From positions 15,149 to 79,148 of the IMG/VR virus record IMGVR_UViG_3300010430_000020: 64,000 nt of DNA; one strand, written 5' to 3'. This DNA is from a virus. The notes beneath the pieces are model-generated. The model worked only from the letters and a program-made list of their open reading frames with translations. It searched no databases and was not told the DNA's origin. The translations under genes and the position numbers were made by a program. Below, piece by piece: positions 21,610 to 37,734 of the stretch. Numbering within the stretch: position 1 is the first letter of the stretch; each line of letters opens with the position of its first letter.

Positions 21610-21849
21610 TCATAGATTACTCTTTAATACTGCTTGCTCTGCAATATCCTTGATATCAATAACAGCATCTATACTTTTCAGCGCGAGTCTATTTGCGGGT
21701 TTGTCATCCAGGCGATCCAAAATATCAAGCACCGCATTTCTAAACAGGTCGCGCTCGTGCTCCACCTCTGAGATTTTTATATCCAGGCGGGCAATGTAGT
21801 CATCATAGAATTTTTGATCGCGTTCTTTCATACTTTCCTCATCCATCAC
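21610..21849 (-). CDS. hypothetical coiled-coil protein
   Basis: overlaps the uvsX stop codon. Confidence 0.55.
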   Translation of the reverse strand: MMDEESMKERDQKFYDDYIARLDIKISEVEHERDLFRNAVLDILDRLDDKPANRLALKSIDAVIDIKDIAEQAVLKSNL

Positions 21850-22871
21850 TGTCCGTATAGATATTCTTTCTGCGCGGCCTCTTCTAACTGTTCCATGACT
21901 TCTTCGGTATAAACTTCTTCTGGGTGCTCATTTATGTATTTGCCGTAGACTTTTCGACCATCTGACAATTGATATTGGGTTGAGACTTTTTTGATGATGC
22001 CGTACTTTTCTCCGAGAGATAGCAAACCAAAATACTTGTCCAGGCCGTGTTCATACGTGAGGAGAAGCTGCGTTTCCGCATTCTCTCTTGATATCCGTGA
22101 CTTTTGGGTCTTAACCGCGATAATATTACCAAGTATCTCATTCGTATCTTTCGTGCGCGTGACCGCCTTGTCTTGCTTCTTTGTCAGGAACAGAATAGTG
22201 GACGCCGCATATTTCAGACCTGCGCCGCCACCCATCTCTTTGGTCGGAACATATGCCCCCACCACATCATAAATATGATTGGTAAGTATCAGAGGTACTT
22301 GTACCTTAGCCAGATGTAATGTCAACACCCTGAATGTGGCTCGCACCAACTGCGCACGGGTCATGTCGCGGGTGTCCTTACCAGCCTCGCTATCTTCCAT
22401 TTCCTTACTGGTTGACAACATCCCAAGACTATCCAGCACAATGAGCATCTGTGGCCGATCTTCTTTGGCCTCATATGCTCTGAGTATCTTGATCACATGT
22501 GTTCTGAATTGCTGCAGGGTAGCCACCTCACAGATAATTACCCGGTTAGCATCGATACCCCTGGCATCCATCATGCTCCGGGTCACAGCAGCCTCGGTGT
22601 CGTAAAACACCACCAAATTTTCGGGGTTGGTATCCAGAAAGTTCTTGATCACCGACAGCGCAAAGAATGTCTTACCAGTTGCAGATGCACCTGCCAACGC
22701 AACAATCTTATTGTTGGGGACGCCGCCATACAGGCTACCAGATAGAATTGCATTGAGCATATAGCAGCCAGTATCAATAAATCCCGAGAACTCGGCAGAA
22801 CCCTTTTCATCGGCTGCTATTGTAGTGAAATCATCCTTCATTTCCTCAACGAGGTCTTTCACAAAGTTCAT
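21846..22871 (-). CDS. uvsX: RecA-like recombinase
   Basis: GASATGKT, YDTEAA, LDSLGML, DMTRAQ, MGGGAGLKYAAS. Confidence 0.95.
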   Translation of the reverse strand: MNFVKDLVEEMKDDFTTIAADEKGSAEFSGFIDTGCYMLNAILSGSLYGGVPNNKIVALAGASATGKTFFALSVIKNFLDTNPENLVVFYDTEAAVTRSMMDARGIDANRVIICEVATLQQFRTHVIKILRAYEAKEDRPQMLIVLDSLGMLSTSKEMEDSEAGKDTRDMTRAQLVRATFRVLTLHLAKVQVPLILTNHIYDVVGAYVPTKEMGGGAGLKYAASTILFLTKKQDKAVTRTKDTNEILGNIIAVKTQKSRISRENAETQLLLTYEHGLDKYFGLLSLGEKYGIIKKVSTQYQLSDGRKVYGKYINEHPEEVYTEEVMEQLEEAAQKEYLYGQ

Positions 22872-33773: not shown

Positions 33774-34016
33774 TTAGGATAGAAGCTCGTTAATCTTTTC
33801 CCAATCATCATAAGAAAGAATTATGTCAAATTCCAACGGGTCTAATAGACATCCATATGATGCCGTTAGAACAGTCATGATCTCATTCACTCGGTTCATG
33901 GCAATCTGTTTTTCTCTCGTTACCTTGCTGTCTCGACAGGCCATTCTGAAATTTTCATCACACTGCCGAAGAACCGTCTTCAGAGAAGAATGACTCTTTG
34001 GTTTGAGTAACATCAT
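33774..34016 (-). CDS. hypothetical protein
   Basis: ORF in operon. Confidence 0.5.
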   Translation of the reverse strand: MMLLKPKSHSSLKTVLRQCDENFRMACRDSKVTREKQIAMNRVNEIMTVLTASYGCLLDPLEFDIILSYDDWEKINELLS

Positions 34017-34246
34017 CTGTGGCCTTTCTTTTTCTTCTTATCAAATAAGAAATCGACCCTTTCTTCTGGAGTTGTGCCGCTCAAGAGAAATTCCCTATCA
34101 TCTGCTGATAGATCATGAAAAACCTCCTGTATGGGCTTCCCTGGCTTTCCTTTGGGCCTCCATTCATCCAGGCGCTCCTGTGTCACCGCAGGCATATCCC
34201 TGATATGAATTTCTTTGGTAAGGATCGAGCGTCTAGTAATTTTCAT
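34013..34246 (-). CDS. conserved phage hypothetical protein
   Basis: MKITRRSILT...IQEVFHDLSADDREFLLSGTTPEE. Confidence 0.6.
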   Translation of the reverse strand: MKITRRSILTKEIHIRDMPAVTQERLDEWRPKGKPGKPIQEVFHDLSADDREFLLSGTTPEERVDFLFDKKKKKGHR

Positions 34247-34973
34247 AATCAAACAACTCTTTCTGTGCTGGCATAAATGTATCGATGGATTTGGGGATAT
34301 AATCTTCATGGAGATCAACAATGATCTCTGGCCGCATCGCGACTACCAGAACTGGACATCTACCCGCTGCATTCGCATCCAAATGTTTAAGCAATTTGCT
34401 AACAATTGTCACACTCTTATTGTTTGGTTTTCTGGTTTGTTCAGGTAGGTTATAGACCGCATCGAAAAATTCATCGCTTCGAGTTATTATGATCCCAACA
34501 CTACACTGACTTAACTCCCGGTGATCCGCAAAACATTTCAGGTCTCTCTGGTATGAGGTATCATTGGTGCTATATTCCAATTCGCAGTATATTCTGTATT
34601 TCATATAATCGACATGATGAGATTTCTTGACTATTTCTTTTTTGTCGGCATTCAACTTTGCTATTATCTCAGGATCAACATCATTGGTGCGAAAATCCAT
34701 ACCGGGTATGTAAGTCATTTTAGGTCTGCCCTCAAACCACCCATATAGTTTCATCAGCTCATCCAGTTGCTTTGCAGCTGGCGATTTTCCTTTTGCGGGG
34801 CGCACGACATCATACCGGGTCAGATTGAATTTACCCAGAACTGTCATGAGTTCATTATGGTCTTTAGAAAAGTCGTTTGCTAGGATACAGCTTGCATGAT
34901 CAAAACTGTACATATCATATTTTCGGAATAACTCATGGGGTATCCATTTTTTAAAGTTCTCGGAGTCTTTCAT
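34233..34973 (-). CDS. BglII/BstYI-family type II restriction endonuclease
   Basis: HASCILANDF, GKSP...YGW, SHHVDYMKYRIYCELEY (D...ExE core), YQRDL, SVGIIITRSDE, AGRCPVLV. Confidence 0.75.
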   Translation of the reverse strand: MKDSENFKKWIPHELFRKYDMYSFDHASCILANDFSKDHNELMTVLGKFNLTRYDVVRPAKGKSPAAKQLDELMKLYGWFEGRPKMTYIPGMDFRTNDVDPEIIAKLNADKKEIVKKSHHVDYMKYRIYCELEYSTNDTSYQRDLKCFADHRELSQCSVGIIITRSDEFFDAVYNLPEQTRKPNNKSVTIVSKLLKHLDANAAGRCPVLVVAMRPEIIVDLHEDYIPKSIDTFMPAQKELFDYENY

Positions 34974-34980
34974 GTTGTAC

Positions 34981-35388
34981 TCACTGTGTGTGTTTTCTTT
35001 TACTTCCTATGCTGTATTTTTGTTCCAGGGTCCATTCGGACTTCTCTTTGTAAGGGATGACCTTAATCTGGTTCATCGGCGTGCGGGGGGATTCGATCTT
35101 CTCCTTATCAACAATATCAAGGAGGTTCCATTCCTCTAGGAGTGATGTGATCGTATTCCGCCGCCCCTTATCTTCCTCGGAGAAATCAGTGCTTTTACCA
35201 TCCAGAGCGAATAACTCCTTGAAGTGAACAATGTAATACTTGCCCTTCTTGTGTAGGATATGACAGGATTGAAAAAGCTTTTTGTCTTTGCGGGAAATGA
35301 CGCCAATACGAGTGAGGGTTTCTTTGATCTTCAAAAAATCATTATCGTCTTTGAGCTTAATCTCCACTAGTGTCTCTACCAAATTCAT
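34981..35388 (-). CDS. regA: translational repressor
   Basis: DFLKIKETLTRIG, QSCHILHKKGKYYIVHFKELF, KYSIG. Confidence 0.95.
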   Translation of the reverse strand: MNLVETLVEIKLKDDNDFLKIKETLTRIGVISRKDKKLFQSCHILHKKGKYYIVHFKELFALDGKSTDFSEEDKGRRNTITSLLEEWNLLDIVDKEKIESPRTPMNQIKVIPYKEKSEWTLEQKYSIGSKRKHTQ

Positions 35389-35759
35389 TTTGTGCCACCT
35401 TGTTCAAATTTTTTTCTTATCGTTGCAAGTTGTTCTTTTGTTAGTATCGCTAGCGCCTCTCGGGCCTTGTGGAGATTGCACTTATAGTAATCACGAAGCA
35501 TCATCAAATCTGAATCATCAAACTTCTTAATCCATTTAGCGCCCCGACTCTTCGGTAGCAGATGGAAATAATAGTCATACTGTAGTTTATGATCTAAGTT
35601 ACTCATCAAGTTCATCTCATTGGCGTGCATGAGGGTATTAATACTCAGCGATAATGATCTATTTATCAAATGAGGAACGTAAGCTTTTTCTGTAACCTGA
35701 TCAATTATGAGATATTCTTTCGTTTTGATGAGAGATTTCACATAATCGAAGGGGCTCAT
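35385..35759 (-). CDS. gp62: clamp loader small subunit
   Basis: MSPFDYVKS, INRSLS, ANEMN, LQYDYY; position between gp44 and regA. Confidence 0.85.
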   Translation of the reverse strand: MSPFDYVKSLIKTKEYLIIDQVTEKAYVPHLINRSLSLSINTLMHANEMNLMSNLDHKLQYDYYFHLLPKSRGAKWIKKFDDSDLMMLRDYYKCNLHKAREALAILTKEQLATIRKKFEQGGTK

Positions 35760-35950
35760 TCTTCTATACCCCGCGCGGCATTAACATGCATCCCGACAGC
35801 ACTCAGAAGCAGGCCCAGAATCAGTAGAACTACAGCAGTGAAGAAATTATTGGATACGGCAGGGACCAATTCGGCAGAGACTAACAACTCATACGTTGCT
35901 ATTGCCATCAGACACGTCCCTATTTTGTACAGGAAGCTTATCTTTTTCAT
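35756..35950 (-). CDS. small membrane protein
   Basis: two hydrophobic helices. Confidence 0.5.
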   Translation of the reverse strand: MKKISFLYKIGTCLMAIATYELLVSAELVPAVSNNFFTAVVLLILGLLLSAVGMHVNAARGIEE

Positions 35951-36137
35951 CGTTAACCCTATCCTCTAACATCTGCGACAAGGCATCAGCATAACTCTCG
36001 CACACTTTTTCACAATGCTTACATATGGGGGCGTTCTTTTTGCCCTCCTTGCAATACATTTGGATATCGGCATACGACTTCCACGGCCAATGAATCAGGA
36101 GAGCGCGGCAGAATAAACATCTAGAATACAGCTTCAT
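35889..36137 (-). CDS. small Cys-containing hypothetical protein
   Basis: CxxC...CxxC. Confidence 0.45.
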   Translation of the reverse strand: MKLYSRCLFCRALLIHWPWKSYADIQMYCKEGKKNAPICKHCEKVCESYADALSQMLEDRVNDEKDKLPVQNRDVSDGNSNV

Positions 36138-37072
36138 TTGAACTCACAATTGGCCATTACTTCGGTCAGGAATGCAGCAAGATTGATCTCTTTGTCTGCG
36201 GCGAGAACATCTTGATACGAGTACTTAGCAATAAGTACCACAAGATAGGGCAGATCATTTGGTTTAATATACTCATTCATATGATCATAGAACTTGCGGT
36301 AGAACTGTCCTGTATCCATCTGAGAATTGTCGGCGACCCACTGCCTGACTGAGGTAAAATTCTTGCTTTTCATATACCCCATGAGCTTATTCAGCGATAC
36401 ATCACGGAAAACATTCAGGATACCATTGTCGATGTGCCCCCGCGCAGAATAGTACTGGAGTTCATTCAACACTCGCCGGAAGTCTGGATAGTGCTTTTTA
36501 ATCACCGCTGCCAGCACATCAGCGACGAAGGGTATTCCCTCTTCCCTGAGTATATGAATGCAATTTTGCATGAAGTGTTTGCATAACGTAACGGCCTCAT
36601 CATGAGAGATTTTGAAATCCACTGATGAACACCGGGACTGAATAGCTGGAATGATCCGATTGCGGTAATTGGCTGTCAGTATAAACCCACAGTTACTACT
36701 GAATTCCTCCATGAAATTGCGAAGCGCTGGCTGCATATGCGGGGTCAGATAATCCGCCTCATCCAGAATGACGTATTTACGCCCGCCCATCAGAGATGTT
36801 GATGTGGCGAATTGTTGGATATGCGTGCGGAGGGTTTCAATCCCTCCTTCCAGAGACCCATTAATAACGATATAATCTGCGCCCAACTCTTCGAGTATAG
36901 CCTTGGCGGCAGTGGTCTTACCAACACCAGACGGACCCACGAGAAGTAGGTTGGGCACATTTTTGTCATCAACGAATTTCTGTAAGGTGTCTTGGATATC
37001 CCTCGGTAGGATGATATCACCCACTTTGCGTGGACGATATTTCTCAACCCACAAAAATTCTTCTTTCATCAT
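36134..37072 (-). CDS. gp44: clamp loader large subunit
   Basis: LWVEKYRP, GPSGVGKTT, ILDEAD, SRC, PDFRR. Confidence 0.95.
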   Translation of the reverse strand: MMKEEFLWVEKYRPRKVGDIILPRDIQDTLQKFVDDKNVPNLLLVGPSGVGKTTAAKAILEELGADYIVINGSLEGGIETLRTHIQQFATSTSLMGGRKYVILDEADYLTPHMQPALRNFMEEFSSNCGFILTANYRNRIIPAIQSRCSSVDFKISHDEAVTLCKHFMQNCIHILREEGIPFVADVLAAVIKKHYPDFRRVLNELQYYSARGHIDNGILNVFRDVSLNKLMGYMKSKNFTSVRQWVADNSQMDTGQFYRKFYDHMNEYIKPNDLPYLVVLIAKYSYQDVLAADKEINLAAFLTEVMANCEFK

Positions 37073-37077
37073 ATATC

Positions 37078-37734
37078 CTAAAATTCAGAGTGTTTAGAGT
37101 TGAGTGTAATCCAGTACTCTATACTATCTCCTTTCCAATGTGTAACGCCTCTCCGATCAATCTCAACGTCATAAGCCTGTTGGATCAGGTTAAGATTTTC
37201 TGACTGGATCACAGCTCTAAACTTGCGGTCGCTGGTACCCAATTCGATGGCAAACTCATCACGGGTCACGCCAGAGGCATCCAGGGCCTTGATCCAGAGC
37301 TTTTCTCCATCACCCTCTATAGATACCTGTTCGAGGTTCAACGTCCTCCTGGCCTTGTCTACGGCCCGTATAACATCAGATGAGATGTGGACCGTATCAA
37401 ACGGCTCGATCTCAACCTCATTATCGGATGCGATATGCAACACATCTGGGTTGGCATAGACATAACGCATCGTGGATGGCCCGGATCGGATTGTCAGATA
37501 GGTATCTGTGAAATAGATATCCGGGTCTGAGAATAGGCCGATGGCATTGAGTAGTTTTTTTAGTTCATAGATTCCGACATCAACAGGAAACTCATCATCG
37601 ATATTGGCCTGTCCCAGCACAGTTTTGTTCTGGGATACAGTACGGATGCGGTGCCCCTTACGAATCAGAATGTTATTGTTGATGTCGGAGAAGTTTTTCA
37701 AAACAGATAACGTGTTATCTGACAATTTCATCAT
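37078..37734 (-). CDS. gp45: sliding clamp
   Basis: MKLSDNTLSVLKNFSDIN, GIYEL, EYWI; position. Confidence 0.9.
   Translation of the reverse strand: MMKLSDNTLSVLKNFSDINNNILIRKGHRIRTVSQNKTVLGQANIDDEFPVDVGIYELKKLLNAIGLFSDPDIYFTDTYLTIRSGPSTMRYVYANPDVLHIASDNEVEIEPFDTVHISSDVIRAVDKARRTLNLEQVSIEGDGEKLWIKALDASGVTRDEFAIELGTSDRKFRAVIQSENLNLIQQAYDVEIDRRGVTHWKGDSIEYWITLNSKHSEF

Follow-up and report, generated by a model that had tools for sequence, protein, structure and literature searches.

The window analysed here, a stretch of 64,000 nucleotides corresponding to bases 15149–79148 of the 79,148-bp contig of a T4-like phage (IMG/VR record IMGVR_UViG_3300010430_000020; completeness about 44% according to CheckV), carries next to the replication gene regA a gene for a BglII/BstYI-family endonuclease and lacks the sequence RGATCY altogether. 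With somewhat better than even confidence, we read the gene product as an active type IIP-like endonuclease of the BstYI/R.Nph3I/BglII family, which the phage would keep without a methyltransferase and to which it would be immune because its own DNA offers zero RGATCY sites. Activity, exact specificity, targets and binding to a sliding clamp are what we infer for this enzyme, and they are worded accordingly below. The gene and its catalytic core are located as follows:

34233..34973, minus strand: gene for a solo BglII/BstYI-family (PF09195) type IIP-like endonuclease of 246 residues, assigned by Pfam, profile and fold

34575..34610, minus strand: catalytic core D122-X8-E131-X-E133, with K125, aligned by profile to D119-X8-E128-X-Q130 of BstYI

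Family and fold of the nuclease are secure. In line with the motifs recognized in a first-pass annotation of the sequence, the protein matched the Pfam family PF09195 (Endonuc-BglII) with an E-value of 1.9e-21 (76.9 bits, cut-off 26). A phmmer search of the PDB with the single sequence returned nothing relevant, and a profile of 52 sequences retrieved BstYI as its sole match (E 2e-5). The AlphaFold (AF2) model, with a predicted local distance difference test score (pLDDT) of 87, most closely resembles BstYI (Z 17.1, root-mean-square deviation 3.3, 169 aligned residues), followed by BglII (16.3), BamHI (13.7) and OkrAI (12.6); the next match drops to 5.6, and all structures above this gap belong to enzymes cutting xGATCy hexamers. 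By its fold, the protein belongs with the PD-(D/E)XK type IIP restriction enzymes and not with GIY-YIG or HNH nucleases. The acidic core VD...ELE, previously described as intact, is present as V121-D122...E131-L132-E133, and the catalytic columns are almost invariant in 52 homologues (D in 50, E or D in 51, E in 51, K in 49), with RDL, IIITR, CP and other core motifs also retained. The best match among 50,697 isolate phage records was NRS3_08 of Nitratiruptor phage NrS-3, the enzyme R.Nph3I (30% identity, E 4e-28). Searches of 5.8 billion clusters and 1.8 billion representatives yielded homologues of at most 37% identity, a single-protein search for related viral loci found none, and NCBIfam, PHROGs and PADLOC held no model matching the nuclease. 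The most likely target is RGATCY or a subset such as AGATCT.

The absence of this target from the phage DNA had been noticed by eye, with estimates of roughly 100 RGATC and 110 GATCY and without any AGATCT, GGATCC, AGATCC or GGATCT. Exact counts in the window agree (GATC 332, RGATC 104, GATCY 131, each of the four hexamers 0), against 41–96 RGATCY sites expected from Markov models of orders 4 to 1. The whole contig likewise holds 444 GATC and no RGATCY, against 86–103 expected from Markov models, and when synonymous codons were shuffled within each gene, so that proteins and codon usage were held fixed, 82.8 +/- 7.2 sites were expected, with a minimum of 61 in 200 trials. In the same comparison, GATC itself is at expectation (444 vs. 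456) and the asymmetric words RGATCR/YGATCY are over-represented (319 observed, 253 expected); RGATCY was therefore lost through silent changes in the bases that flank GATC. Among the non-palindromic hexamer pairs of the contig, AGATCC/GGATCT stands out as by far the most strongly depleted (0 vs. 51 expected), which marks a degenerate R...Y target. In fact, RGATCY is the sole degenerate hexamer that is wholly absent, whereas CYCGRG, GRCGYC, GRGCYC, CCWWGG and other degenerate families retain asymmetric members. Among palindromic xGATCy specificities, the phage could tolerate only subsets of {AGATCT, GGATCC, AGATCC/GGATCT, CGATCG}, because every other NGATCN word occurs in the window.

As stated in the first-pass annotation, no methyltransferase gene adjoins the nuclease gene, the neighbours being regA and a 102-residue open reading frame (ORF) with a PHROG match. 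The search for a cognate enzyme was also negative further away: six-frame searches of the 79-kb contig with five DNA-methylase families, PF01555, PF00145, PF02086, PF02384 and PF05063 (MT-A70), the last of which provides the methylases paired with PF09195 nucleases in phages (e.g., Lo5R7ANS, L146, and L147), gave no match in this approximately 44% of the genome. Twenty further contig proteins compared with Pfam showed no other restriction-enzyme family and no methylase, and a PADLOC scan of the 113 contig proteins gave mostly ATPase and helicase cross-hits among the 25 of 65 families listed. The 79-kb contig hence lacks the linked cognate methyltransferase gene of an orthodox type II restriction-modification (R-M) system, and it combines, as in the case of PacI, the lack of a methylase match with the lack of a target site.

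A profile scan of IMG/VR placed this arrangement in a wider context. Besides the phage of the window, 74 viral loci with a BglII-family gene were found, 71 of which have an ORF with the methylase motif [DSN]PP[YFWH] within 1.5 kb, usually abutting, and two more (L122 and L146) an MT-A70 gene one or two genes away. In all 73 paired cases, the methylase is thus found within two genes (about 1.6 kb) of the nuclease, mostly directly adjacent. Only two of the 75 viral contigs with the family are solo, i.e., that of the window and G001 (locus L136), whose whole 112,111-bp contig gave no match to the five methylase families. G001 (corresponding to L157–L162) shares just four weak protein matches with the window phage and encodes Pol III alpha, a beta clamp, a DnaX-like loader, RecA, RecJ, IF3 and a sigma factor; the contig appears to come from a giant phage whose replisome is of the bacterial type. 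Its nuclease (L136:9977-10585; PF09195, E 7e-32) shares 40% identity with R.Nph3I and retains the consensus motifs of the family; the other genes of its run encode a Fic-domain protein, a PD-(D/E)XK nuclease and a product weakly matching a dual-specificity phosphatase. G001 contains 346 GATC and no RGATCY, vs. 44–90 expected across Markov orders, with AGATCC/GGATCT as its most depleted word amid many other purged palindromes. The purged sets of the two phages differ in part, as CAGCTG, TGGCCA, CTGCAG and TCGCGA are absent from G001 and present in the window phage. Both solo contigs are site-free, compared to four of the 63 methylase-paired loci with at least five expected sites (Fisher p about 0.007), where the four are related Lo5R7ANS-like phages and the solo pattern rests on two independent cases. 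This association is what an active RGATCY cutter predicts, namely that the methylase is dispensed with only where there is nothing to cut.

Some of the paired loci are of interest in their own right. Mesorhizobium phage Lo5R7ANS (L081/L151) as well as L148, L149 and L152 carry a nuclease with an MT-A70 methylase, yet hold only 0–2 RGATCY sites vs. 8–41 expected; in Lo5R7ANS, a broad avoidance of palindromes and of GANTC-related words was seen. L100 and L150 (12.5 and 20.4 kb, GC content about 0.6) have a nuclease-methylase pair and zero GATC. The product of L082:4099-4686 (NrS-3, NrS3_08) bears the GenBank label "methyltransferase" and is actually the PF09195 nuclease R.Nph3I (PMC10734518).

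In the window, the nuclease gene belongs to a same-strand run of replication genes in the order gp45-gp44-gp62-regA-nuclease:

37078..37734, minus strand: gp45 sliding clamp, first gene of the run (PF09116 gp45-slide_C, E 7.9e-11)

36134..37072, minus strand: gp44, large subunit of the clamp loader, 55–61% identical to 80 IMG/VR T4-like loci; the isolate phage matches are annotated as clamp loader

35385..35759, minus strand: gp62, small subunit of the clamp loader (phrog_225, E 1.7e-33)

34981..35388, minus strand: regA translational repressor (phrog_242, E 1.9e-59), separated from the nuclease gene downstream by 7 nucleotides

34013..34246, minus strand: small gene within a 102-residue ORF (phrog_20898, E 3.1e-11 over residues 26–90)

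No minus-strand terminator was found between regA and the nuclease gene, which is probably co-transcribed with gp45-gp44-gp62-regA. The likely ATG of the small downstream gene overlaps the nuclease stop codon by 14 nucleotides, and the GC content of the nuclease gene (0.40; 0.41 at third codon positions) is within one standard deviation of the contig genes. Native-like composition and overlap with the downstream gene therefore argue for an integrated resident gene. Between gp44 and gp62, an ORF of 82 residues (35889-36137, minus strand), rich in cysteine (CxxC ... CxxC) and without a family found, overlaps the gp44 stop codon.

A further feature shared by the two solo enzymes is their C-terminal tail:

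34266..34331, minus strand: low-confidence linker, about residues 215–236 (pLDDT 46–65 after residue 220)

34236..34265, minus strand: C-terminal motif QKELFDYENY, residues 237–246, resembling a sliding-clamp-binding epitope of the PIP-box or beta-clamp type

Methylase-paired homologues mostly end about 16 residues past the GGCP motif, whereas both solo enzymes extend beyond this usual end; the window nuclease ends in ...PAQKELFDYENY and the G001 enzyme in ...EKQKSLFDYF, so that they have the tail QK[E/S]LFDY in common. None of the 72 methylase-paired viral homologues examined has a similar ending, and motifs of this class occur in the last 12 residues of only 6 of 3032 control ORFs (0.2%). 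Two others among 161 family representatives have such a tail, P0021 (QVTMADFYA, 204-kb contig) and P0136 (QLSLFDKLME); viral scans for their genomic context found nothing, and one metagenome scan gave just methylase-paired, tail-less relatives. The family tree unites P0021 with the G001 enzyme (SH-aLRT 97) and places the window protein next to them, unsupported, and P0136 elsewhere; the tail is therefore partly inherited and partly convergent.

The tail conforms to the PIP-box pattern Qxx[LIM]xx[FY][FY] as well as to the beta-clamp motif of bacteria, Qx[SD]LF, and lies at a terminus of low pLDDT; the drop in model confidence beyond residue 220 is what a disordered linker between nuclease fold and tail would give. 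NucS/EndoMS is likewise an enzyme with a C-terminal clamp motif; to our knowledge, no restriction-type enzyme uses a clamp. In T4, the polymerase gp43 (SLDFLFG), gp33 and gp55 carry hydrophobic/acidic C-terminal clamp-binding epitopes behind flexible linkers (PMC2988020, PMC6212786), and the polymerase of the window phage ends in ...TIEDFFG. A complex model of gp45 (35-row alignment) with residues 205–246 scored a median of 0.37 (0.21, 0.37, 0.44), with 0.00 for the best of three controls. The mark for this score was passed by 58 complexes in a set of 80 solved ones and by 2 pairs in a set of 110 mismatched ones; values of at most 0.60 comprise only 7 of those 80 solved complexes and both passing mismatches. 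The support is weak; the gp45 runs agree in at least 0% of contacts, at a partner pLDDT of at least 44. Through the tail, the nuclease may be tethered to a sliding clamp, which could be gp45 of the phage or the beta clamp of the host. The latter is an equally good candidate partner, because the two phages share the tail yet encode different clamps (a gp45 trimer and a beta dimer). A UvsX/RecA homologue of the window (21846-22871, minus strand) has a C-terminus, ...EEAAQKEYLYGQ, which resembles the nuclease tail (AQKE followed by aromatic residues), and the two might bind the same partner.

The loss of RGATCY is embedded in a much wider purge of restriction sites. A count of all palindromic hexamers showed that 24 of 64 are present in 0 or 1 copies (window and contig counts), i.e., the purge is not specific to RGATCY. 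In the codon-shuffle comparison, site counts are bimodal, with about 31 type II sites at 0–2 copies and all remaining sites close to expectation. Palindromes of four bases show no depletion. Further purged sites include the following:

CCTNAGG: 0 observed, about 12–15 expected

GCTNAGC: 1 observed, about 11–14 expected

RGGWCCY: 2 observed, about 18–26 expected

GACNNNGTC: 0 observed, about 10–12 expected

GACGGC/GCCGTC, a non-palindromic pair: 0 observed, about 21–22 expected

We know of no enzyme matching GACGGC/GCCGTC. The purged set, including these five, may fingerprint the restriction repertoire of the host population. The idea that the phage removed its sites on account of its own nuclease is unsupported, with about 30 other type II sites equally purged. 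The simplest history is therefore a general avoidance of host restriction first and capture or retention of the nuclease afterwards; the RGATCY loss is part of this general purge and probably predated the gene.

Relatives of the phage were compared on the basis of gp44, which 80 IMG/VR loci share at 55–61% identity. All 70 relatives with gp44-gp62-regA lack the nuclease, and also three small ORFs downstream; the gene fills a variable slot between the conserved regA and hsp20. Pooled, the relatives hold 983 RGATCY sites vs. 1071 expected, about one per 800 bp, and the 24 purged palindromes at normal numbers, and the purge is therefore specific to the lineage of the window phage. Relatives without the gene do retain RGATCY, the point proposed as a check in the first-pass annotation; the result is nevertheless uninformative, as every other purged palindrome is also kept, and the comparison cannot separate nuclease-driven from host-driven loss because all sites were purged together. 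One T4-like relative (L059, 13.4 kb) is the sole one of the 80 with 0 RGATCY (4.8 expected); it is too short to judge and has no BglII-family gene in that stretch. The nearest cultured phages by gp44 are Stenotrophomonas, Methylophilales and Synechococcus phages (49–54% identity). A cyanobacterial host, considered because regA is 81% identical to P-RSM6 at the nucleotide level, was dropped, since gp44 is nearest to Stenotrophomonas and Methylophilales phages (51–54%). A literature search on restriction-site avoidance in cyanophages found no match.

In the scenario we favour, i.e., an active nuclease in a phage devoid of its target, the wide purge of about 30 sites, most likely driven by host restriction, would have preceded the arrival of the gene or the loss of a partner methylase. 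The site-free state would have come first, because gaining an active solo RGATCY nuclease would be lethal to a phage with about 200 RGATCY sites; alternatively, the methylase could have been lost once the sites were already gone. The resident nuclease would then select against any new RGATCY site and could cut unprotected RGATCY in the host chromosome, serving shut-off and nucleotide salvage, and/or in co-infecting phages, serving exclusion; it would be useless against a host that methylates RGATCY, and enzymes of the R.Nph3I type are likewise stopped by N6-methyladenine within GATC (PMC10734518). Of the earlier proposal of self-protection by site absence, the core is upheld by the intact nuclease, the lack of a methylase on 79 kb, the zero count of RGATCY and the recurrence in G001; its other part, a purge caused by the enzyme, is not.

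Several observations weigh against an active, self-sparing RGATCY cutter. About 30 sites were purged in all, so that the RGATCY loss needs no contribution from the nuclease, and the Lo5R7ANS-like phages are RGATCY-free despite their methylase, so sites can also vanish from genomes in which the nuclease is paired. With the contig about 44% complete, a methylase could lie elsewhere; moreover, the phage has no close relative (best gp44 identity 61%), which leaves the order of events tentative. The nuclease has the longest branch in the 161-row family tree (2.0 vs. a median of 0.35), and near-invariant columns are altered (GG60-61 to AK, W134Y, N135S, K137N, D142Q, YG184-185 to NN, T188V, and R197H). 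The column of K137N is K in 51 of 52 homologues and aligns with K133 of BstYI, which presumably contacts the outer purine. At the putative base-contact columns, the protein has EYSTN, AKGKS and NNKSVT in place of the family consensus EWNxK, GGxKS and YGASTT. These changes may have moved its specificity within the xGATCy set or compromised its binding to DNA. Clamp binding, finally, is a lead and not a finding, as it rests on a short motif and a weak model.

These substitutions at probably DNA-contacting columns, together with the long branch, the generality of the purge and the fact that PADLOC, PHROG and NCBIfam models do not recognize the protein, are what speaks for mere coincidence: host restriction would have purged RGATCY along with some 30 other sites, and the nuclease would be a decaying or re-targeted passenger which does not cut RGATCY. 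We consider this rather unlikely, as the protein keeps its catalytic residues and most core motifs, and its gene has an uninterrupted reading frame and forms part of an operon. Moreover, the unrelated G001 repeats the combination of solo gene, site-free genome and tail with a conventional sequence, 40% identical to an RGATCY cutter, and the tail is missing from the paired genes examined. The variable regA-hsp20 slot and the absence of the gene from 70 relatives, whose RGATCY sites at about one per 800 bp would be open to attack, could instead reflect a selfish element of the exclusion or homing type, which would mainly serve its own spread, cutting RGATCY-bearing related phages in mixed infections and being copied with its site-free flanks during recombinational repair from the carrier genome, a marker exclusion comparable to that by seg and mob of T4. 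This explanation is unlikely in our view, because a 6-bp target would shred the competitor genome rather than give one repairable break, the fold is of type IIP restriction enzymes and not GIY-YIG or HNH, the composition is native-like and close relatives showing a presence/absence polymorphism are lacking.

The incompleteness of the contig also leaves room for one half of an ordinary R-M system with its methylase in the unsequenced 56% of the genome, and separated R-M genes are known in bacteria (PMC3488263). That the methylase is no more than two genes away in 73 of 73 paired viral cases, that it would have nothing to protect on 79 kb with zero targets and that G001 also lacks a methylase match on 112 kb makes such a split very improbable. 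The slimmest chance is given to an anti-restriction decoy, forming inactive heterodimers with a host RGATCY enzyme or competing against it. Homology to cellular enzymes of the same family and the substituted DNA-contact columns, which could weaken cleavage by the protein itself, would suit this role, but a host enzyme of this kind could not harm an RGATCY-free genome in the first place, the protein keeps its catalytic residues and an identity of at most 37% to any known homologue makes heterodimers doubtful. The dominant-negative inhibitor suggested in the first-pass annotation appears unlikely for the same reasons, as the genome, being free of sites, has no use for one and the catalytic residues are in place.

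Compared with known systems, the nuclease which we regard as an active RGATCY-type cutter stands closest to R.Nph3I/M.Nph3I of NrS-3, where cleavage of RGATCY was shown by cell-free expression and is blocked by N6-methyladenine, and the cognate methylase adjoins the nuclease (PMC10734518). Both are phage-encoded PF09195 nucleases, 30% identical; NrS-3, however, is temperate, has its N6-adenine methylase adjoining, keeps 23 RGATCY sites and encodes a nuclease without the C-terminal tail. BstYI (R^GATCY; PDB 1SDO, 1VRR, 2P0J), which together with R.Nph3I, MflI and XhoII forms the RGATCY isoschizomers, is the best structural match and has the same D-X8-E-X-(E/Q) active site. BstYI, BglII, BamHI and OkrAI differ in their low identity (14–15%) and in the cognate methylases that accompany the cellular enzymes, while the window nuclease adds linker and tail and has Asn in the column of BstYI K133.

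Self-protection through an absent recognition site and not through methylation is also known from PacI, which occurs as a solitary restriction enzyme in Pseudomonas alcaligenes, whose genome is free of PacI sites (discussed in PMC3488263). PacI, however, is a bacterial enzyme of the HNH type, and its 8-bp site, made up of A and T only, is rare in a GC-rich genome, so that absence is nearly free, whereas about 83 expected 6-bp sites were removed from the genome of the window phage by synonymous recoding. The T4 nucleases EndoII and EndoIV degrade host DNA while hydroxymethylcytosine shields the phage DNA, and chloroviruses encode R-M systems. The likeness lies in viral nucleases which spare viral DNA and attack cellular DNA early; there, self is marked by base modification, whereas the window phage would use the absence of the target word. 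The seg and mob homing endonucleases of T4 resemble the nuclease gene in being inserted between conserved genes and absent from relatives, and differ in their GIY-YIG/HNH domains, which it lacks. With the T4 clamp ligands (gp43, gp33, gp55, and the T4 ligase loop) and with NucS/EndoMS, the nuclease shares a short hydrophobic/acidic C-terminal motif behind a flexible linker, and its gene lies within the operon of clamp and clamp loader; the binding itself is a prediction.

Restriction enzymes are taught as cell defences that require a methylase. Within virulent phages, R-M systems are nearly absent (PMC4176335). The present case and G001 suggest that a phage genome already scrubbed of restriction sites can harbour the cutting half by itself, for offensive use. 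If true, self and non-self would be distinguished by a missing DNA word instead of a modification, which could explain how phages lacking modified bases might break down host DNA or shut out competitors and yet spare themselves. Any solo phage nuclease is then predicted to reveal its target as a word missing from the genome. A clamp-binding tail, if confirmed, would give a restriction-type enzyme a new route to its DNA. One could even conceive of a separate class of phage weapons, in which methylase-less nucleases, harmless to recoded carrier genomes that hold no target, are loaded by their tail onto host DnaN or the phage clamp for the processive destruction of host or rival DNA; the nearly identical tails in phages with different clamps would then point to the host beta clamp as the shared partner. 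We regard this reading as doubtful at present. Apart from the nuclease described here, the contig may encode a second one, a 208-residue protein beside PhoH (contig bases 9355-9981, minus strand; L163) with a weak PF12705 PD-(D/E)XK match of 22.6 bits.

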